A program made the translations under genes and the position numbers. From a virus: a stretch of 44,199 bases of DNA. The first letter of the stretch is position 1. Every line of letters begins with the position of its first letter. Positions 7,153 through 19,157 of the stretch are shown piece after piece. The notes under the pieces are model-generated. The model did not search any database. It was not told the DNA's origin and worked only from the letters and a program-made list of their open reading frames with translations. Location: positions 1 through 44,199 of IMG/VR virus record IMGVR_UViG_3300022924_000007; one strand, 5' to 3'.

Positions 7153-7220
7153 TGGGCGATATAATAACTTTAGTTGTTACCATAGTATTTATGATAGCAT
7201 TCGTATTTATAGAGGATTAA
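7149..7220 (+). CDS. micro membrane peptide, 23 aa
   Basis: Hand translation MMGDIITLVVTIVFMIAFVFIED; ATGA overlap with the helicase stop. Confidence 0.3.
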   Translation: MMGDIITLVVTIVFMIAFVFIED

Positions 7221-7221
7221 C

Positions 7222-7308
7222 ATGGATATATTTGACGAGATCGGTGAGATCATAGCAGAAGGCGCAGAAGTAATTCTGGACGCAGTAGCAGAGTTCCTTA
7301 ACCTATAA
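7222..7308 (+). CDS. acidic micro-ORF, 28 aa
   Basis: Hand translation MDIFDEIGEIIAEGAEVILDAVAEFLNL; last ORF before the terminator hairpins. Confidence 0.3.
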   Translation: MDIFDEIGEIIAEGAEVILDAVAEFLNL

Positions 7309-7313
7309 AAAAA

Positions 7314-7356
7314 GACCCCTAAAATGGAGTCTTATAAACTGAATTAAATCAGTTTT
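7314..7356 (+). terminator. two tandem hairpins (gacccc/ggagtc and aaactga/tcagttt) followed by T runs
   Basis: Read directly; located in the intergenic gap after a gene block and before a new promoter. Confidence 0.45.
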
Positions 7357-7487
7357 GGAGAAAGGAGTTAAGCGTAGAGTAACGACAAAGAAACCTCTAC
7401 ACTATTTACTATAACATACATCAGTAGTATTGTCAATAGTTCAGAGGTGTAATTGTACATTCTACAACACTTTTTCCGGCAAAGGTA

Positions 7488-7517
7488 TTGACAAACAGTA
7501 ATCAATCATGGTAAGAT
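7488..7517 (+). promoter_or_regulatory. promoter: TTGACA-N18-TAAGAT
   Basis: ttgacaaacagtaatcaatcatggtaagat. Confidence 0.5.
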
Positions 7518-7523
7518 AGATAT

Positions 7524-7625
7524 ATGGAGAAAGAAACAGTGTTTTATATTTGTATAGCAGTAGTCATCGGAATCGTAGCGATCGGATGCATTACATGGCC
7601 ATTCATTAAGGAGTTAGATAAATGA
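7524..7625 (+). CDS. small membrane protein, 33 aa
   Basis: Hand translation MEKETVFYICIAVVIGIVAIGCITWPFIKELDK; the stop overlaps the next ATG (ATGA). Confidence 0.4.
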   Translation: MEKETVFYICIAVVIGIVAIGCITWPFIKELDK

Positions 7626-10151: not shown

Positions 10152-10648
10152 TGGGAATTAGTAAAAAGAAGTTTAATGCAGAAGTTGCAGATACAACTCA
10201 ATCATTTATTAATGTAAAGAAAGAAATGGACTTGGCTTTCGAGTTGATCGGAGACCTACAAAAGTCTGTACGTGACTACGCATCTATTGCAAAGAACGCA
10301 CAATCTCGTGCTGATATTGCTATCAAGGAAAATGAATCATTACGTGAATACGTTTACGAACGATTTGGTCAACTTGACAATAACGGTGTAGCAACAGCAA
10401 TTAACAAGCTTAATGATGAAGTGTTCAAAGAACGTAAGGAAAAGAAAAATGCTCTACGTGTTAACTTTGATTACCTATTTGGTATTGCAACAACAACACC
10501 TAAGCCAGTAGAAGAAGTTACTCTTGCCGGTAAGGTTGAAGCGATCGCAGAACACCTCAAATTGAACTTTGAAGTAGCACCTGAAGAAGTAAAAGCTGCT
10601 AAACCAGTGGCTAAAAAAGTAGTAACAAAGAAGAAGGGCCGACGATAA
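10151..10648 (+). CDS. hypothetical coiled-coil protein, 165 aa, with a basic C-terminus
   Basis: ORF preceded by RBS gaggagg. Confidence 0.65.
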   Translation: MGISKKKFNAEVADTTQSFINVKKEMDLAFELIGDLQKSVRDYASIAKNAQSRADIAIKENESLREYVYERFGQLDNNGVATAINKLNDEVFKERKEKKNALRVNFDYLFGIATTTPKPVEEVTLAGKVEAIAEHLKLNFEVAPEEVKAAKPVAKKVVTKKKGRR

Positions 10649-11801: not shown

Positions 11802-12180
11802 GTACAGAAATAAGTTTGAGGAGAAGACCGGAGATGACCTTACACAAAAAGGAATACAGTTTGGGTACGAGACCGAGAAGCTTGATTACAGCGTTGCCGG
11901 CAGGTACTTACCGGATTTCATCATCACACGGAAGAACGGTAGTAAGGTTTATATCGAGACCAAGGGAAACGGACGTTCATTTGACGGCCCTTCCCGTAGG
12001 AAGCTACTCGCCGTTAAGTCCCAACACCCTGAAGTTGATCTCAGAATTGTATTCTACTCAGATGGGAAAATCGGGGCAACACGAAAAGATGGTTCCAGAG
12101 CAACTCAATCGGAGTGGGCAGAAAAGAACGGCTTTAAGTGGGCGATCAAAGTAATTCCGGAGGCATGGCTTGAGGAATGA
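11794..12180 (+). CDS. T7 endonuclease I-like Holliday junction resolvase, 128 aa
   Basis: YLPDFIITRKNGSKVYIETKG matches the endonuclease I PD-(D/E)XK core (Y.PDF...G..hE.KG). Confidence 0.7.
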   Translation: MNKYRNKFEEKTGDDLTQKGIQFGYETEKLDYSVAGRYLPDFIITRKNGSKVYIETKGNGRSFDGPSRRKLLAVKSQHPEVDLRIVFYSDGKIGATRKDGSRATQSEWAEKNGFKWAIKVIPEAWLEE

Positions 12181-12466
12181 AGAATATTTTAATAGTGCGG
12201 ACTGGATTAGGTTCAGGATTCACTGGCTCAAGGATAACCCTCCGCTCGACAACGGGTATTATCTTTGCGGGATTTGTGGTCATTGGGTTGCAGCTGAGGA
12301 AGTTACGCTCGATCACATCATCCCCAGGACAGCGCAGAACATGTTTGACCCTAATAATATTCAACCGGCACATGGTATATGTAACTATAACAAAGGAAGT
12401 AAAAGATGGCAGCCAAAAGTAACCAAAGAAACTTACGAATTCCTGAATCTCATATCACATATGTAA
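12170..12466 (+). CDS. HNH endonuclease, 98 aa (TTG start)
   Basis: CGICGHWV...LDHIIPR...N.QPAHGICNYNKG is an HNH motif with flanking Cys pairs. RBS ggagg lies 6 nt before the TTG. Confidence 0.8.
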   Translation: MRNEEYFNSADWIRFRIHWLKDNPPLDNGYYLCGICGHWVAAEEVTLDHIIPRTAQNMFDPNNIQPAHGICNYNKGSKRWQPKVTKETYEFLNLISHM

Positions 12467-12611
12467 CTCAGGATGGTGAGCGAATGAAATACCCTTCGTT
12501 AATGGGTAACGTACCACGAGTATCGGGCATCCGTACAGGTGGGGACAAAGAATTTTTAGCTAGTAATAATGGCAAATTGTCGAAATTACAACACAATTTT
12601 AGCTAAATCTA

Positions 12612-12640
12612 TTGACTTTTGCATACTTCTTTGATAAGAT
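12612..12640 (+). promoter_or_regulatory. promoter: TTGACT-N17-TAAGAT
   Basis: ttgacttttgcatacttctttgataagat. Confidence 0.5.
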
Positions 12641-12709
12641 AGTAAGATAGAAAGGGGAAATATATGAGTCAAATTAAACAATTAGTTCCACAAGAAGTAA
12701 ACGCATTTG

Positions 12710-13420
12710 ATGAAATTGATTTCAGTGAACAAGTTGCCTAACATTAGGCAGAGACTTGAGAAATCTATCCCTTTAATATTAGATAACCAAGGAGGTTACA
12801 TTAGTAACTTTTTAAATAAGGTGAAGCTCTGGATAATTCCTATTGCAGTAGCTCTCCTGATCGTAGTAAATGCCGTGGTTCTGACACGATTCAGTGATAC
12901 AAACCAAAAGTTTGTTGAGCAGCAAAGTATGACGATCGAAACTAAAAATACTCTACGGAGTGTTCAAGGTGAGAAAGCGAAGGTGGATACCTCGTTAAAG
13001 GAAGAACGACTAAAAGCTGAAAATCTCCAAACGGAGAATGAAAGTTTAAAAGTCAGCTTGCAAGCTAAAAAAGATGCAGAAGCGAAAAAGATATATCCGG
13101 TTGCAGAAGTGCCCAAAGTGGCAGCAACGGTATCTATTATTAGCGGAACTAAATCAGATTGGCTTGCAGCGTCTGGAATACCAGAAGACCAATGGAGCTA
13201 CGTTGATTCAATCGTAACCCGTGAGTCTGGATGGAATCCTAATGCAATCAATAAATCCTCTGGGGCCTGCGGTCTAGGACAACAATTACCTTGTGGTAAA
13301 TGGTCTGGCGCATGGAATGACCCAGTAGCAGCGTTGATAGCTATGAACGGTTACGTAACATCACGTTATGGTAGCTGGGCAGGAGCAGTTGCATTTTGGA
13401 ATACTAATCACTGGTATTAA
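12710..13420 (+). CDS. membrane-anchored coiled-coil protein with a C-terminal lysozyme/transglycosylase-like domain, ~236 aa
   Basis: TM segment LWIIPIAVALLIVVNAVVL and a coiled coil, followed by SIVTRESGWNPNAINKSSGACGLGQ, which resembles the (E)SGGNpnA.N.sSGA.GlfQ core of IsaA/SceD-type transglycosylase-like domains. The start is uncertain (TTG at 12707 or ATG at 12710). Confidence 0.6.
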   Translation: MKLISVNKLPNIRQRLEKSIPLILDNQGGYISNFLNKVKLWIIPIAVALLIVVNAVVLTRFSDTNQKFVEQQSMTIETKNTLRSVQGEKAKVDTSLKEERLKAENLQTENESLKVSLQAKKDAEAKKIYPVAEVPKVAATVSIISGTKSDWLAASGIPEDQWSYVDSIVTRESGWNPNAINKSSGACGLGQQLPCGKWSGAWNDPVAALIAMNGYVTSRYGSWAGAVAFWNTNHWY

Positions 13421-13429
13421 AAAACAACG

Positions 13430-14092
13430 GGCCTCTAAGCTATATTAGATGTGAGGATAACTGGCGGTGGAACAACTTTTGTGACCCAGTACCGTCTTAT
13501 GGTGTGGTGTATAGCCCTTTATTGGGATTTGAGAAATTGGCTCTGCTTCGGTATCCAACTCATCTAGCATGGAATCTTGGTGCAAGTCCAAGTCACACTT
13601 TTTATATGCCCGTACCTGCAGGAATTGGCCAAGCAGGTGTTAGCTAACGGGTTGGGGTAGCTCCCCATCAAGAACCCACGAGGATGATAATTTGTTTCAT
13701 TAGTAGTGGTTTTACACATTTCTTCGGAAGAGATATTTGCACATGCGTGTTGACTCTAAATAAACAGTGCTTTATGCCACTAACTCAGCGAAGTAATCGT
13801 CTCGTTGACCTGTTGAATTGAACTTACTTCATACTTGAAGGGAAGGAAACTACGAGATAGCCGTGCACAGGCGATTCTGAAAGTGCCAACAGCGAGAGAA
13901 GAAGGAAGACGGTTGGAGTCCGTGCGGTGGCTACAATTATTGATACAGACAAGGCAGCTTCTGTGGGAAGGTTATGCATAAACACCCAGAGTCGCATACA
14001 CGGTTGGAGGCGTAAGTCCCATAAAGGAAGTCCGTGGTAGGTAGCGTGTGGTATCCGTTTATGGTGGGAACATTTCGTAAAAATGTTAATCA
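13430..14092 (+). ncRNA. candidate large structured ncRNA (GOLLD/ROOL-class or novel); boundaries approximate
   Basis: There is no plus-strand ORF in the track. The region is G+C richer than its flanks and holds many short perfect helices, UUCG loops, T-arm-like hairpins and a duplicated module. It lies immediately upstream of the tRNA-like element and the tRNA. Confidence 0.4.
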
Positions 14093-14174
14093 GGGGTAGT
14101 AACTGGTTTGATTGCATTGAAAGCCTGAAAAGGAACGATGTAAGACGAGTGTTCGATTCACTCCTACTCCACCA
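14093..14174 (+). ncRNA. 82-nt tRNA-like element: 7-bp acceptor stem (G3:U70), T-arm GAGTG-TTCGATT-CACTC, encoded ACCA, no canonical D or anticodon arm
   Basis: Hand fold: ggggtag (14093-14099) pairs with ctactcc (14164-14170). The T-arm is 14147-14163 and the discriminator A plus CCA is 14171-14174. Confidence 0.5.
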
Positions 14175-14313
14175 AACAATATAGGGTGAATTAGTAGTCC
14201 TTTAGATATGCCACTAGCCTCTTCGTGAAAGCTAGTCCCCAGTCTATAAAGTTCTGCACCGGAACGGGTAGGTGTCTGGTTTCTGTCAGAGTTCCATGTT
14301 AAAAACTCAAGAA

Positions 14314-14390
14314 CAGGGTGTAACTCAGTTGGTTAGAGTGCTCGGTCTGGAACCGAGATGTCGGGGGTTCGAGTCCCTCTGCCTTGACCA
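14314..14390 (+). tRNA. tRNA, anticodon UGG (Pro by anticodon), 77 nt with encoded CCA; noncanonical C33 and A37
   Basis: Full cloverleaf folded by hand. Acceptor cagggtg/tgccttg (C1:G72, G3:U70). D-arm actc-agttggtta-gagt. Anticodon arm ctcgg-tctggaa-ccgag. Variable loop atgtc. T-arm ggggg-ttcgagt-ccctc. A73-CCA. Confidence 0.8.
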
Positions 14391-14574
14391 TGAAATTTGC
14401 AGAGATGGTGACTCCGAAAGTGTCAGGAATAAATGGGCTTCTGAACACTAAATAAACACCACTTTATTGATAATCACATAGCATTCAGGGAGTTGAAAAA
14501 GCGATAGCTACGTCCCGCTTATCGAGCCGAGTATACCAAGTGGATGCTAGTTGATTGTTTATAAAGGAGACATA

Positions 14575-14676
14575 ATGGACGAAGTAGAGAAGTGGCTCCT
14601 AGATGAGACCACCACATTTGAAGAGATAGATAGGATAGCGAATGGCGAAGACGACAGCGAAGATTCTACTGTATGA
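14575..14676 (+). CDS. acidic micro-ORF, 33 aa
   Basis: Strong RBS aaaggag 5 nt before the ATG. Hand translation MDEVEKWLLDETTTFEEIDRIANGEDDSEDSTV. Overlaps the exonuclease start by 35 nt. Confidence 0.35.
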   Translation: MDEVEKWLLDETTTFEEIDRIANGEDDSEDSTV

Positions 14677-15394
14677 CCTAGAGGTGTCGAGAGACATCGT
14701 TGAAGGATACGGTAATAAATGGGAGTTCAAGGTAGTTAAGACTATCCGACACCAAGAACTCATGTGCTTTGCATATAAGTTTTTAGGCGATAAGACAGTT
14801 AAATACGTATCACGACATGATTTTGCTAAATATGATGACTTTGTTAAAGCACTTTGGGACATCCTGAATGAAGCTGACATTGCTATTGCACATAACGCAG
14901 CACGATTTGACAATAAGATGGCAAACAGATTCTTTATTAAGGCAGGTCTTGGACCAGTTTCACCTTACAAGACTGTTGACACACTGCAGGTTGCACGAGG
15001 AGCCTTTAAGTTTCAATCGAATGGACTTAATGATCTTGCCGAATACCTAGACCTAGGAAGTAAAGTCAAGATGGGCTATGCCGACCTAGAAGAAGAATTC
15101 ATGAATAATCCTACACCAAGCGTTGAGAGGCTTATGAAAAAGTATAACGTCCAAGATGTTGTACTTCTGGAGAAGATTTACTTGAAATTACGACCGTTTA
15201 TTAAGAACCACCCGAACATTGGTGATATCTTGCAAGAGATTGGCCTTTGTCCTAAATGTGGAAGCCCAGACTTGCGTACATATGGTACGGCACCAAGAGC
15301 TAACGGACGAGTACAGACATATATTTGTAATACTTGTGGTGGACGTTGTAGCCAGGCAACTATTAAAAGTAGCGGAAGGATTGTTAATGCCTAG
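14642..15394 (+). CDS. DEDDy 3'-5' exonuclease (RNase H-like, PolB-exo/YprB-type) with a C-terminal zinc ribbon, 250 aa
   Basis: ExoI LLYDLEV, ExoII AHNAARFDNKM, ExoIII YNVQDVVLLE, then CPKCG...CNTCGGRC. Confidence 0.75.
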   Translation: MAKTTAKILLYDLEVSRDIVEGYGNKWEFKVVKTIRHQELMCFAYKFLGDKTVKYVSRHDFAKYDDFVKALWDILNEADIAIAHNAARFDNKMANRFFIKAGLGPVSPYKTVDTLQVARGAFKFQSNGLNDLAEYLDLGSKVKMGYADLEEEFMNNPTPSVERLMKKYNVQDVVLLEKIYLKLRPFIKNHPNIGDILQEIGLCPKCGSPDLRTYGTAPRANGRVQTYICNTCGGRCSQATIKSSGRIVNA

Positions 15395-15692
15395 TATTGA
15401 AAATGAAGCGTACCTAGTGAGTCGGAGATCAGTAGTAGAAAAGATGCTACCGCCTGAACTATTAGTAGTGCGTGAAGGTATACTTAAACGACTGAATCAA
15501 GAATACGAAGACCTAGCTATGGTTAACGATGTTCTTACCGGATACGGATATACAGAAACAATTGTAGATGAGATTACATCAAAGCCTGCAGGAGTACATG
15601 ATGCTAATGATGGCACGATCGGCGCAGTAGAGCGACCTACAGATAGCGTATGGCCAAAAATTAGAGATGGATTAGATTTAGAGGAAGTGTAA
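15387..15692 (+). CDS. hypothetical protein, 101 aa
   Basis: ATG at 15387 overlaps the exonuclease stop; the upstream part of track ORF 15219.. lies inside the exonuclease gene. Confidence 0.55.
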   Translation: MPSIENEAYLVSRRSVVEKMLPPELLVVREGILKRLNQEYEDLAMVNDVLTGYGYTETIVDEITSKPAGVHDANDGTIGAVERPTDSVWPKIRDGLDLEEV

Positions 15693-15906: not shown

Positions 15907-16173
15907 ATGGCTAAAGATATATTAGGTAAAGATATCCAAGAAGGTCAGTTTGTTATTCAAGCTGCAGGACAGGGGCACGATAAATGGCTCCAGATTGCTG
16001 TAGTTCTTGAAGTAATAGATGAAAACAACGTTAAAGTTCAGTCACAATCACGACCGGGCATTGTTAGGTGGGTAAATAGCAGACTACTTGTCATGGAGAC
16101 AACGGCTGGAATGACTAGCGAGAATGTCAATAAATTAGAGAAATTTTATGTTGATTATAGGAGCAAGAAATAA
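15907..16173 (+). CDS. hypothetical protein, 88 aa
   Basis: ORF preceded by RBS aaggag. Confidence 0.65.
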   Translation: MAKDILGKDIQEGQFVIQAAGQGHDKWLQIAVVLEVIDENNVKVQSQSRPGIVRWVNSRLLVMETTAGMTSENVNKLEKFYVDYRSKK

Positions 16174-17162
16174 TGTCAAGAACAGCGCCATTCCCCAAGA
16201 TTATACATATCGGGGATAAACAGATTCAAGACCTATTCGACGACACTGTAGAAATTACAGAAAAAGTAGATGGTTCACAGTTCGGATTCGGTAAGGTTAA
16301 CGGTGAGTTATTCTGTCGAAGCAAGGGCCGTGAAATTGACATGGACAATCCAGATAGAATGTTCATTAGCGGTGTAGAATACGTAAAAACTATTCAAGAT
16401 AGAATCCCGGATGACTTTACGTTCTATGGTGAGTATCTACAAAAGCCTAAACATAATTCATTAGCTTATGATAAAATACCACATAATCATATTGCATTAT
16501 TTGCAGTTAATGATAACGGTAAGGACAAGAAGTTCTTAGACTACGATGCTATTAAACACTGGGCTGAAGTACTAGACATAGATGCAGTACCACTATTATA
16601 CCAAGGTAAGTCCGGCCCAGAAGCTGTGCTTGAAATGGTAAAGAATAAAGTTAGTTATCTTGGTGGACAGAATATTGAAGGTGTTGTGGTGAAAGCTTAC
16701 AAGCCTTGGCTGTTTATGAATCAGATACCGCTAAACGTAATGGCAGGTAAATATGTTACAGAAGACTTCAAAGAGGTACATAATAAGAGCTGGAAAGCTG
16801 AACACACCAATAAGGGTCAACTCGAAGTGGCGATTAGTAACTACAAGAGTGAAGCACGGTGGAATAAGGCCATACAGCATTTACGAGACGCAGGAAATCT
16901 TACCGGGACACCTCGTGATATCGGAGCACTCATCAAGGAAGTCCACAAGGATATAGCCGAAGAAGAGAAAGAATCAATCAAAGCAGCACTATGGTCTATC
17001 TATAATGATAAGTTCATGAAGGCAGCTACTGAAGGATTTGCTCAGTGGTATAAAGAGAAAATAATGATTGAAGGAGTTGAACCAAATGTTCAAGAGAGTA
17101 ATGCTAGTCCTGATAGCAGCAGTGATACTGTTGGTACCGGCGACAACGACACAAGCGTATAG
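16173..17162 (+). CDS. ATP-dependent RNA ligase (covalent nucleotidyltransferase), 329 aa
   Basis: Motif I EKVDGSQ (KxDG), motif III FYGEYL, motif IV IALFAV, motif V EGVVVKAYK. It lies 1.1 kb upstream of a Pnk-like gene. Confidence 0.75.
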   Translation: MSRTAPFPKIIHIGDKQIQDLFDDTVEITEKVDGSQFGFGKVNGELFCRSKGREIDMDNPDRMFISGVEYVKTIQDRIPDDFTFYGEYLQKPKHNSLAYDKIPHNHIALFAVNDNGKDKKFLDYDAIKHWAEVLDIDAVPLLYQGKSGPEAVLEMVKNKVSYLGGQNIEGVVVKAYKPWLFMNQIPLNVMAGKYVTEDFKEVHNKSWKAEHTNKGQLEVAISNYKSEARWNKAIQHLRDAGNLTGTPRDIGALIKEVHKDIAEEEKESIKAALWSIYNDKFMKAATEGFAQWYKEKIMIEGVEPNVQESNASPDSSSDTVGTGDNDTSV

Positions 17163-18054: not shown

Positions 18055-18295
18055 CGACAAAAAACAACGCCGAGTAAAACGACAACTTAGGAAGGTGAAC
18101 AGGCAACTGGTCGCCCTAACTATTAAAAAGTTATTCGGTGATACAACGACAGAGATCAAATATACACCAGACATTGACCCTAAATTAAGTAACAAGCAGC
18201 GACTTGTTAAACGACGTATTCTTAATGGACGGATTAAAGTTGACGGCAAGGTGTTCAATCCAAAGACTGGGGATTTTGAATTAGATGCAGCCTAA
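18047..18295 (+). CDS. hypothetical highly basic protein, 82 aa
   Basis: ATG at 18047 overlaps the previous stop. The N-terminus is Lys/Arg-rich (KKQRRVKRQLRK). Confidence 0.55.
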   Translation: MHNDKKQRRVKRQLRKVNRQLVALTIKKLFGDTTTEIKYTPDIDPKLSNKQRLVKRRILNGRIKVDGKVFNPKTGDFELDAA

Positions 18296-19157
18296 ACCAG
18301 AACTACTAATGTTGAAAGGCTTACCAGCTTCAGGTAAGTCTACACATGCTAGAGAGCTTGTTGATAAGGGATACGTCCGAGTCAATAAAGATGATCTACG
18401 CAAAATGTTAAACAACGGCCAATACAGTAGGCCAAATGAAGCTGCAGTACTTAAGTTCCGTGATACTATTATTAATGAATCATTGCAGAATGGTAAAAAT
18501 GTAGTAGTAGATGATACAAACTTTGAACAGAAACACTATGATCGGTTAAGCGAAATAGCACAGAACCAACAAGTGAACTTCCGAGTACTGTTTATTGATA
18601 CACCTCTTGAGGACTGTATTAAACGCAATGAAGCTCGTGCTGACAAAGTACCGTTGGAAGTTATATATCAAATGTATAATAGACACATTGCACCACTAAG
18701 GAACGATAAGGAGATTAACTACGATGAAGAACTTGATGAGTGTATTATCGTTGACATTGATGGGACTCTTGCTCATATTAGCAATGGGCGTAGTCCCTAC
18801 GATGCTAGAAGTTCCGGCGCTGATACTGTCGATGATTCTGTTGCTGGCATTGTTGCCATGCACTATCGTCATGGATACAAGGTCATCCTCTTCTCAGGAC
18901 GAGGAAAGCTCGAAGGCGAAGAAGAAGCAACGATTCAATGGCTCGCAGATAACAACATTGCCTATGACGCACTCTATCTACGACCTGTGGGAGATGGCAG
19001 GAAAGATACCGAAATCAAAGAAGAGCTCTTCAACACACACATTAAAGGTAAGTACAACCCACGGTTCGTCATTGATGATCGTCCGAGTGTCTGTAGAATG
19101 TGGCGACGTATTGGACTCAAAGTCCTGCAAGTAGGCGACCCTCATGTTGAATTTTAA
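18285..19157 (+). CDS. polynucleotide 5'-kinase / 3'-phosphatase (T4 Pnk-like), 290 aa
   Basis: P-loop GLPASGKST and VNKDDLR in the N-terminal kinase domain. HAD motif I VDIDGTLA and a later FVIDDRP in the C-terminal phosphatase domain. Confidence 0.8.
   Translation: MQPKPELLMLKGLPASGKSTHARELVDKGYVRVNKDDLRKMLNNGQYSRPNEAAVLKFRDTIINESLQNGKNVVVDDTNFEQKHYDRLSEIAQNQQVNFRVLFIDTPLEDCIKRNEARADKVPLEVIYQMYNRHIAPLRNDKEINYDEELDECIIVDIDGTLAHISNGRSPYDARSSGADTVDDSVAGIVAMHYRHGYKVILFSGRGKLEGEEEATIQWLADNNIAYDALYLRPVGDGRKDTEIKEELFNTHIKGKYNPRFVIDDRPSVCRMWRRIGLKVLQVGDPHVEF

Follow-up and report, generated by a model that had tools for sequence, protein, structure and literature searches.

Within a 44,199-nucleotide (nt) phage genome (IMG/VR record IMGVR_UViG_3300022924_000007, positions 1 to 44,199; here called the window), the 1.15 kb between 13421 and 14574 contain no credible gene. 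We find in this gap two recognisable RNA genes, a tRNA-Pro(UGG) and an 82-nt transfer-messenger RNA (tmRNA) that is reduced to its tRNA-like domain (TLD). The locus combines a phage tRNA array with a TLD-only tmRNA, both of which are kinds already known. The explanation that we favour, and consider likely, is that the gap is the slot of a tRNA array from which all tRNAs but one have been lost, while several small structured RNAs have been kept, with the TLD interfering with, or replacing, ribosome rescue by the host. The original prediction, made from the letters of the window alone, had proposed a single large non-coding RNA; its view that the locus is non-coding and encodes RNA was correct, as was its report of a genuine tRNA.

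The largest plus-strand open reading frames (ORFs) in the gap are of at most 48 amino acids (aa), or overlap the tRNA, and 13421-14271 is the longest run without a plus-strand ORF of at least 50 aa in the plus-strand gene block. A gene caller applied to the source contig made no calls between the SLT-like gene (stop at 13420) and the exonuclease gene. On the minus strand, an ORF of 97 aa (13824-14117) overlaps the tmRNA-like RNA and has no match to a PHROG family.

A tmRNA reduced to its tRNA-like domain

We ran cmscan with all 4227 families of Rfam 15, at the gathering score over the whole window and at E<=10 over 13300-14700. At the gathering score the only matches in the window were to tRNA (14314-14387, 56.4 bits) and tmRNA (14093-14174, 48.6 bits). 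At E<=10 there were only two extra matches, both at chance level, i.e., to an xrRNA and a permuted tmRNA. ARAGORN reported the tRNA-Pro(UGG) only, and no tmRNA at its default threshold. The two genes are:

14093-14174, plus strand: tmRNA reduced to its tRNA-like domain, 82 nt (Rfam tmRNA, RF00023)
14314-14390, plus strand: tRNA-Pro(UGG), CCA encoded (ARAGORN; Rfam tRNA, RF00005, 56.4 bits against a gathering score of 29)

What had been described as an acceptor/T-arm minihelix is therefore a real RNA gene, with the sequence GGGGUAG-UAACU-GGUUUGA-(8-bp helix, CC-UGAAAA-GG hairpin)-GAC-GAGUG-UUCGAUU-CACUC-CUACUCC-A-CCA. It consists of a 7-bp acceptor stem (GGGGUAG...CUACUCC) with G3·U70, A73 and an encoded CCA, a D-loop analogue (GGUUUGA), a T-arm (GAGUG-UUCGAUU-CACUC) and, between these two, a stub of helix 2 with 8 bp and a small hairpin at its end. 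By sequence it carries the features of alanyl-tRNA synthetase recognition (G3·U70, A73 and CCA), and the alignment places in it tmRNA's D-loop-analogue and T-arm region, i.e., the region bound by SmpB.

With standard tmRNA (RF00023; gathering score 47) it shares the acceptor stem, GGnUUnGA(C), the GAC followed by the T-arm, and the alanine identity set G3·U70/A73/CCA. However, the match spans model positions 1-374 with 304 of them deleted, leaving the two ends only; the pseudoknots, resume codon, tag frame and stop codon are absent, and the helix-2 strands are separated by only about 24 nt. Because these parts are missing, the mRNA half of trans-translation would be beyond this molecule. Inspection by eye of the aligned family members revealed no shared GCN-to-stop frame between the helix-2 strands; a GCC-UGA in the central hairpin of the window's copy, considered as a tiny tag ORF, is not common to the relatives and was rejected.

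For comparison we used 16 related uncultured phages of about 44 kb, and 17 complete arrays, i.e., lysin-exonuclease intervals taken from IMG/VR, JGI, ENA, Logan and NCBI assemblies. A motif search gave ten copies of the TLD in the family, of 79-84 nt, and this size is constant in 15 closer family members; unconstrained minimum-energy folds had the same architecture in nine of the ten. MAFFT misaligned the 5' ends, and a structure-guided alignment with N padding was used instead. In the alignment of these ten sequences 98.8% of cells pair and 14 of 17 pairs show changes on both sides, values that none of the shuffled or slid controls approached. With 18 sequences and three helices, 99.0% of cells pair, both-side changes are again seen in 14 of 17 pairs, and no shuffle out of 500 matched this. 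G1-C72, G2-C71 and G3·U70 are invariant in all 18, with free covariation at positions 4-7, in helix 2 and in the T stem. Across the 17 family sequences neither the alanine identity elements nor the encoded CCA vary; the 18th, from Mycobacterium phage DS6A, has no encoded CCA.

A model built solely from the TLDs of the window's phage family (R1) located the RNA in 14 of the 17 complete arrays, four of which (L001, L057, L185 and L187) are free of tRNAs. The copies in L185-L189 came from searches with R1, as did variants of reduced length (71-73 nt) in L006 and L007, which are more distant and have them beside their tRNA arrays. Judged by these alignments and searches, no other element of the array is as constant in the family as the TLD-only RNA. 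Because of this constancy, together with the covariation and the invariant alanine identity elements, we regard the comparison as strong evidence for a selected viral function.

Integration at tmRNA genes, with the 3' end of the gene carried along, is seen in many integrative elements, and an IMG/VR pattern scan for tmRNA 3' ends found many in viral contigs among the matches listed. That the sequence at 14093-14174 is an attachment-site fragment of this type, or a host tmRNA pseudogene, is nevertheless extremely improbable. Both halves of the TLD are present and contiguous, its 5' and 3' acceptor strands covary between phages, its size is constant in the 15 closer members, and there is no integrase among the window genes examined. 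In addition, when 80 viral tmRNA-3'-end loci among the matches listed were fetched, only one gave a compact match to R1, with A3-U70. A 79-nt TLD-like RNA with A3-U70 rather than G3·U70 (40 bits on R1) lies on the minus strand of an unrelated viral contig, L129, at 10431-10509, and may be a tRNA-like RNA of different identity.

TLD-only tmRNAs are a known but rare kind, and those of phages were previously represented by a single genome, listed as 'Mycobacterium phage DS6A (TLD only)' by Hudson et al. (2014; PMC4131195) and as tmID 11587 on the tmRNA Website. R1 aligned end to end with the DS6A RNA (JN698994 28478-28560, 56.8 bits, E = 1e-12). The Rfam tmRNA model at its gathering score misses DS6A and most of the family members scanned, and detects mini-tmRNAs only at the edge of its threshold. 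The DS6A gene (our L183) is unannotated in the GenBank record; it is flanked by gp33 and the DNA polymerase III gene.

The DS6A RNA is of similar length (83 nt against 82 nt) and likewise has no tag frame. The elements shared are the 7-bp acceptor stem, in which G1-C72, G2-C71 and G3·U70 recur, the D-loop analogue, a short hairpin-closed helix 2 and the T-arm, and both phages carry an RNA ligase (RtcB-like in DS6A; Rnl, together with PNKP, in the window). However, its 3' end reads ...CCACUA, so that CCA is unencoded, and sequence identity outside the conserved core is low. The DS6A gene also stands alone in a temperate Mycobacterium siphovirus, whereas the TLD of the window belongs to a tRNA/small-RNA array, and its phage family has genes of podovirus type (a P22/SU10-type portal and, in relatives, T7-type endonuclease I and gp5.9). 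Jakobid mitochondria and some plastids likewise have tmRNAs that lack a coding sequence (CDS), including genes of about 65 bp in plastids of Mallomonadaceae; rescue is their presumed role (PMC11915505). Compared by description only, these too have been kept under selection with nothing but the tRNA-like domain, but they are organellar and have a dedicated SmpB. Here the gene is viral, and a scan of 24 window proteins against Pfam or PHROGs, not exhaustive over ORFs, gave no SmpB. With TLD-only RNAs now found in at least 15 divergent uncultured phages, and shorter variants in two more distant relatives, a single-phage curiosity becomes a family-wide and clearly selected feature, to which candidate new RNA motifs are added.

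The tRNA-array slot in related phages

The gene-free stretch ranges from 0.25 to 2 kb among the 17 complete intervals, with zero to nine co-oriented tRNA genes in it. All-against-all blastn revealed that the parts that are not tRNA are short modules common to subsets of the phages, in varying order. In the window, the modules and the sequences between them are:

13427-13496, plus strand: leader, two hairpins, CCTC 13432-13435/GAGG 13453-13456 and GGCGGT 13463-13468/ACCGTC 13491-13496 (11-locus alignment)
13501-13599, plus strand: M1, tRNA-shaped, without anticodon and CCA (homologues L058 1704-1799, L054 1015-1147 and L189)
13608-13667, plus strand: M1b, outer stem 13608-13613/13647-13652 around a hairpin, CCTGC 13615-13619/GCAGG 13633-13637 (five family members and L189)
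13669-13812, plus strand: AT-rich spacer without detectable homologue, with one copy of a repeat, D1, at 13753-13775 (blastn, word size 7, all family loci)
13813-13897, plus strand: M2, conserved segment of unknown nature (91% identical to L054 2114-2198)
13898-14092, plus strand: segment without detectable homologue, with a duplicated ACGGTTGGAG..GTCCGTG module and a hairpin at 14069-14087 (blastn)
14197-14274, plus strand: M3, conserved hairpin 14203-14246 with conserved flanks (four sequences)
14391-14574, plus strand: spacer from tRNA-Pro to the next gene, with the second D1 copy and AAGGAG at 14564-14569 (repeat and ORF inspection)

The array of the window can be written leader-M1-M1b-(no homologue, with M2)-TLD-M3-Pro, and that of L189 leader-M1-M1b-Leu-Met-TLD-Tyr-Asp-...M3...-Pro-His-Ile-Asn-Gln. 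The two align continuously at 77% identity from the lysin gene through the leader, M1 and M1b to 13677, and the spacer at 13669-13812 lies where collinear relatives have tRNA-Leu and tRNA-Met. The tRNA-Pro of the window is orthologous to those of L002, L054, L060 and L189, with M3 upstream of it in both the window and L189. Because the collinear L189 carries nine tRNAs and the window one, the alignments identify the gap as the tRNA-array slot of the family, which has lost eight of nine tRNAs relative to L189 and kept the non-tRNA modules. In L188 (2337-2576) the array is made up of the leader, the TLD and tRNA-Pro(UGG) only, the same recognisable pair of RNA genes that the window retains. A 'tRNA-Met(CAU)' directly before the TLD in L054 (1497-1573) and L189 (7364-7437) reaches no more than 35 bits with the Rfam tRNA model, and has exactly the same T-arm, GAGTG-TTCGATT-CACTC, as the TLD of the window. 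An exact-protein look-up for closer relatives returned the source contig and an identical Logan contig only, and hence no variation; L021, which is 92% identical, begins within the exonuclease gene, and the DNA upstream is absent from its sequence.

Like this slot, tRNA arrays of the T4/T5 type are co-oriented clusters of CCA-encoding tRNAs in the early/middle region, variable in content between relatives, with non-tRNA RNAs interspersed and homing-type endonuclease genes nearby. The T4 tRNA cluster, for example, also contains two stable non-tRNA RNAs of unknown function. Unlike them, the window keeps a single tRNA, and its conserved sequence is mostly in non-tRNA modules. The lysin gene and the RNA array are closely preceded by an HNH endonuclease gene (12170-12466), and HNH or Endonuclease_7 genes occur in the same neighbourhood in relatives. 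Shuffling of modules driven by homing endonucleases fits the presence of these genes.

The original prediction had read the whole 1.15 kb as one large ornate non-coding RNA, of the GOLLD/ROOL class or new, with the tRNA-like pieces as domains. The locus does resemble GOLLD (RF01998) and ROOL (RF03087) in being phage-borne and ORF-free and in adjoining a tRNA; the gap is long, and several of its local helices are real and conserved. However, the only Rfam families matched are tRNA and tmRNA, and at E<=10 over 13300-14700 no covariance model for GOLLD, ROOL, OLE, HEARO, raiA or group I/II introns gave a match. The conserved sequence falls into separable modules of 50-100 nt each, which occur in relatives in other orders and combinations with tRNA genes between them, and about 340 nt are entirely without conservation. 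In L189, ordinary tRNA genes (Leu, Met, Tyr, Asp, His, Ile, Asn and Gln) stand where the window has the gap, an outcome that the original prediction had itself named as one that would refute it. Because order and combination differ in this way, with ordinary tRNAs between, the conserved pieces are best described, on the alignments, as separate modules rather than domains of one fold of several hundred nt.

Folding energies also speak against a single structure. The 672 nt upstream of the tmRNA-like RNA (13421-14092) fold at -179.3 kcal/mol, which is worse than dinucleotide shuffles (-193.4 +/- 6.4; z = +2.2), and the minus strand of this segment gave z = +1.4. The description of the gap as hairpin-dense was an impression, not a measurable property. 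Enrichment in GC exists but is mild (44.7% against 41.7% for the window, with 8% of equal-sized windows at least as GC-rich); the count of 93 G+C in the 180 nt at 13861-14040 was correct, and places that segment in the top 0.9% of 180-nt windows. Taken together, these results make one large RNA a very remote prospect, and indicate that long ORF-free 'ornate' regions of phages can be tRNA-depleted arrays. The fallback that had been offered, an undescribed RNA or a decayed tRNA array, came close to the truth in that the array is depleted of tRNAs, but several non-tRNA RNAs have been kept. In a nucleotide search against 50,697 phage records, the gap matches nothing other than the tRNA-Pro of other phages.

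A stricter form of that fallback is that everything except tRNA-Pro, and perhaps the TLD, is non-functional debris of tRNA loss and recombination. The nine tRNAs of L189 against one in the window, the segments at 13669-13812 and 13898-14092 for which no homologue was found, the absence of a thermodynamic signal relative to shuffles, and the HNH endonuclease genes beside the slot, which suggest frequent rearrangement, would all agree with this. We nevertheless consider it improbable. No tRNA remnants were detected at E<=10, the calls made by ARAGORN under relaxed settings were implausible, and there was no blastn similarity to the tRNAs of L189. Moreover, the leader, M1, M1b, M3 and the TLD are 77-94% identical between phages, with compensatory changes, whereas the neighbouring protein is only 64-78% identical, and the same modules persist in several other arrays. 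The alignments show a modular, array-like organization of the locus, and the retention of M1, M1b and M3 in a tRNA-poor array argues that these modules are functional.

A proposed role in host ribosome rescue

We propose that the array is read through on the plus strand together with the flanking genes, which is probable because no terminator-like site was found in 12500-15500. Host tRNA-processing enzymes of the RNase P type would then divide the transcript into separate small RNAs. The products would be tRNA-Pro(UGG), the 82-nt TLD-only RNA and at least three further structured modules, i.e., M1, M1b and M3, with the structured leader in front. The simplest reading of M1, which in the window directly follows the leader and takes the place that the TLD has in other arrays, is a further tRNA mimic that RNase P would process.

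The TLD itself would be alanylated, and would bind SmpB of the host and, when charged, EF-Tu as well. Most likely it would serve during infection as a decoy by which trans-translation of the host is blocked or diverted. This rests on analogy: according to PMC4131195, which cites Mao et al. (2009, RNA Biol 6:355), a similar TLD-only molecule strongly inhibits tmRNA whether or not it can be charged, perhaps by titration of SmpB, and the 2025 tmRNA database paper (PMC11915505) repeats this. In a variant of the proposal, the TLD would free stalled ribosomes, leaving nascent proteins, mostly those of the phage, untagged for degradation. The TLD family offers natural variants with which to ask if bacterial ribosome rescue is switched off, or replaced, by phages.

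The same molecules could act differently, with the TLD as a tag-less rescue factor: Ala-TLD·SmpB would enter stalled ribosomes (e.g., after host nucleases cut mRNA or tRNA) and accept the peptide, and the peptidyl-RNA would be released, so that phage proteins escape marking for degradation. This is possible, though we would put it forward only tentatively. It would account for the invariance of the alanine identity elements and CCA in the family, which a pure SmpB sponge would not strictly need, and CDS-less tmRNAs do persist in jakobid mitochondria and some plastids (PMC11915505). Genes for RNA repair (RNA ligase, PNKP and RlaP) lie a few kb downstream in the phage and its relatives, although the link to them is one of proximity only. 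We know of no mechanism in bacteria for release from a peptidyl-TLD. In addition, the one TLD-only experiment reported (PMC4131195) found inhibition of tmRNA irrespective of charging.

Several points weigh against the decoy proposal, and against the depleted array with retained small RNAs on which it builds. Co-transcription, processing and the ends of the RNAs are all deduced from sequence, and the inhibitory role is carried over from one experiment in E. coli, as cited by PMC4131195 and PMC11915505. The best cultured relative is at 42% protein identity, and depending on the host trans-translation might either help or harm the phage. The TLD was not found by R1 in three complete arrays (L003, L004 and L005) of a more distant subclade. 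About 340 nt (13669-13812 and 13898-14092) have neither a homologue nor an assigned role, and among the modules M1 is represented by four close sequences, M3 by four and M2 by two.

A further reading, which we consider doubtful but worth stating, is that M1, as a mimic of the tRNA 'elbow', forms with M1b, M3 and the TLD an undescribed small-RNA cassette that manipulates host translation or tRNA surveillance, or acts as a decoy for defences that target tRNA. If so, selection would keep the modules even when tRNA genes are lost.

Remaining modules and gene neighbourhood

Every motif listed in the original prediction lies exactly where it was reported, and several fall within conserved modules; as a whole, its observations were partly confirmed. 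The leader begins just 3' of the stop codon of the SLT-like lysin gene and is kept in 11 loci, with both-side changes in 10 of 11 pairs predicted by RNAalifold from these loci. It directly abuts the TLD in L002, L055, L187 and L188, usually ending 3-4 nt before G1 of the TLD, and it abuts M1 in the window (with a gap of 4 nt), L058, L054 and L189.

M1 is made up of a 7-bp acceptor-like stem, a CCC-UUUAUU-GGG hairpin, a variable central hairpin with a UUCG tetraloop, a T-arm (CUUGG-UGCAAGU-CCAAG) and a U-rich tail. The claim that the locus contains tRNA-like modules holds for this element. Its acceptor-like stem (13501-13507/13593-13599) shows compensatory changes, being GGTGTGG/TCACACT in the window, GGTCTGG/TCAGACT in L058 and L054, and GATGCGA/TCGCATT in L189. 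The T-arm (13576-13592) is invariant among the relatives, as are UGUAUAGCCCUUUAUUGGGA and UAGCAUGRAAU (the 'elbow'), and the central hairpin varies in sequence and in length (34 to 71 nt), with a UUCG or GAAA cap. M1 failed when tested as a tRNA: there was no match to RF00005 at E<=10, the stem is followed by UUUUAUAU and not by CCA, and ARAGORN gave only a poor call, at its 80% threshold. Its resemblance to tRNA is limited to the acceptor-like stem and T-arm. A pattern scan of IMG/VR for M1 gave one chance match, with no T-arm nearby.

In M1b, the hairpin has a conserved 13-nt loop, AGnAAUUGnnCAA, and both-side changes occur in 6 of 14 pairs. The hairpin is followed by the 10-nt palindrome at 13639-13648, which is palindromic with another sequence in L054 and L059, and by the hairpin at 13653-13667, which is identical in L058 and differs at one closing position in L189. 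Sixteen exact-pattern matches to M1b in bacterial genomes were rejected as homologues; they lie in unrelated contexts with unshared flanks, and by our own estimate about nine would be expected by chance.

M3 has an outer helix (UAGAU/GUCUA), an internal loop with GCC and CCCC, an inner helix (CUAGC/GCUAG) and an apical loop, CnnUUCGnGAAn. It is 89% identical to L002 3238-3317, 78% to L189 and 77% to L005. Comparison with these relatives backs the ctagc/gctag pairing noted at 14214-14235: the inner helix is CUAAC/GUUAG in L005, and the outer helix occurs as UAGA/UCUA, CAGA/UCUG and CAGU/ACUG. A pattern scan of IMG/VR for M3 gave no loci beyond those already in the comparison set. On these alignments the leader, M1b and M3 are hairpins with limited covariation, and M1, M1b and M3 are candidate new small-RNA motifs that current Rfam models do not recognise.

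M2 includes a run of 49 nt identical to L054, in which the neighbouring exonuclease protein is only 75% identical. In L054 it lies between tRNA-Tyr and tRNA-Pro. There is no second copy in the window, and an IMG/VR pattern scan found no match, which leaves two sequences in all. The duplicated module (13909-13924 and 14000-14036) and the hairpin at 14069-14087, which ends 5 nt before the tmRNA-like RNA, are present as originally described, but blastn against the family loci found no homologue of either. The repeat D1, CTAAATAAACAnnnCTTTAT, has two copies in the window, one within the array (13753-13775) and one (14445-14467) that precedes the next gene by 108 nt. No copy was found in the relatives; the repeat could be a promoter-like element.

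The genes leading up to the gap encode a PIF1 helicase, a HIRAN/PD-(D/E)XK protein, endonuclease I, the HNH endonuclease and the SLT-like lysin; 3' of the gap are an exonuclease subunit of DNA polymerase, RNA ligase and PNKP, and the structural genes, including an SU10/P22-type portal, are on the opposite strand. There is no close cultured relative: megablast with a 12-kb query around the gap gave no match, and the best protein identity was the 42% mentioned above. Metagenomes contain 273 homologues of the exonuclease at E<1e-40, many of which are on contigs of about 44 kb; a collection of bacterial genomes gave no match. The RNA ligase and the polynucleotide kinase-phosphatase PNKP (16173-17162 and 18285-19157) are a tRNA-repair pair, 1.6-4.6 kb downstream of the array, and many relatives have in addition an RlaP nucleotidyltransferase.

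Elsewhere in the window, 469 nt at 7153-7621, between the PIF1-like helicase and HIRAN/PD-(D/E)XK genes, have no ORF of at least 50 aa on either strand. This is the largest both-strand ORF gap of the window, and has no Rfam match at the gathering score. Immediately 3' of the gap at 13421-14574, an ORF at 14575-14676 encodes an acidic peptide of 33 aa (MDEVEKWLLDETTTFEEIDRIANGEDDSEDSTV), following the AAGGAG ribosome-binding site and overlapping the start of the exonuclease gene. Its DNA is conserved in at least eight relatives, gene callers put a gene of 29-41 aa at the same place, and it is probably a real small gene.

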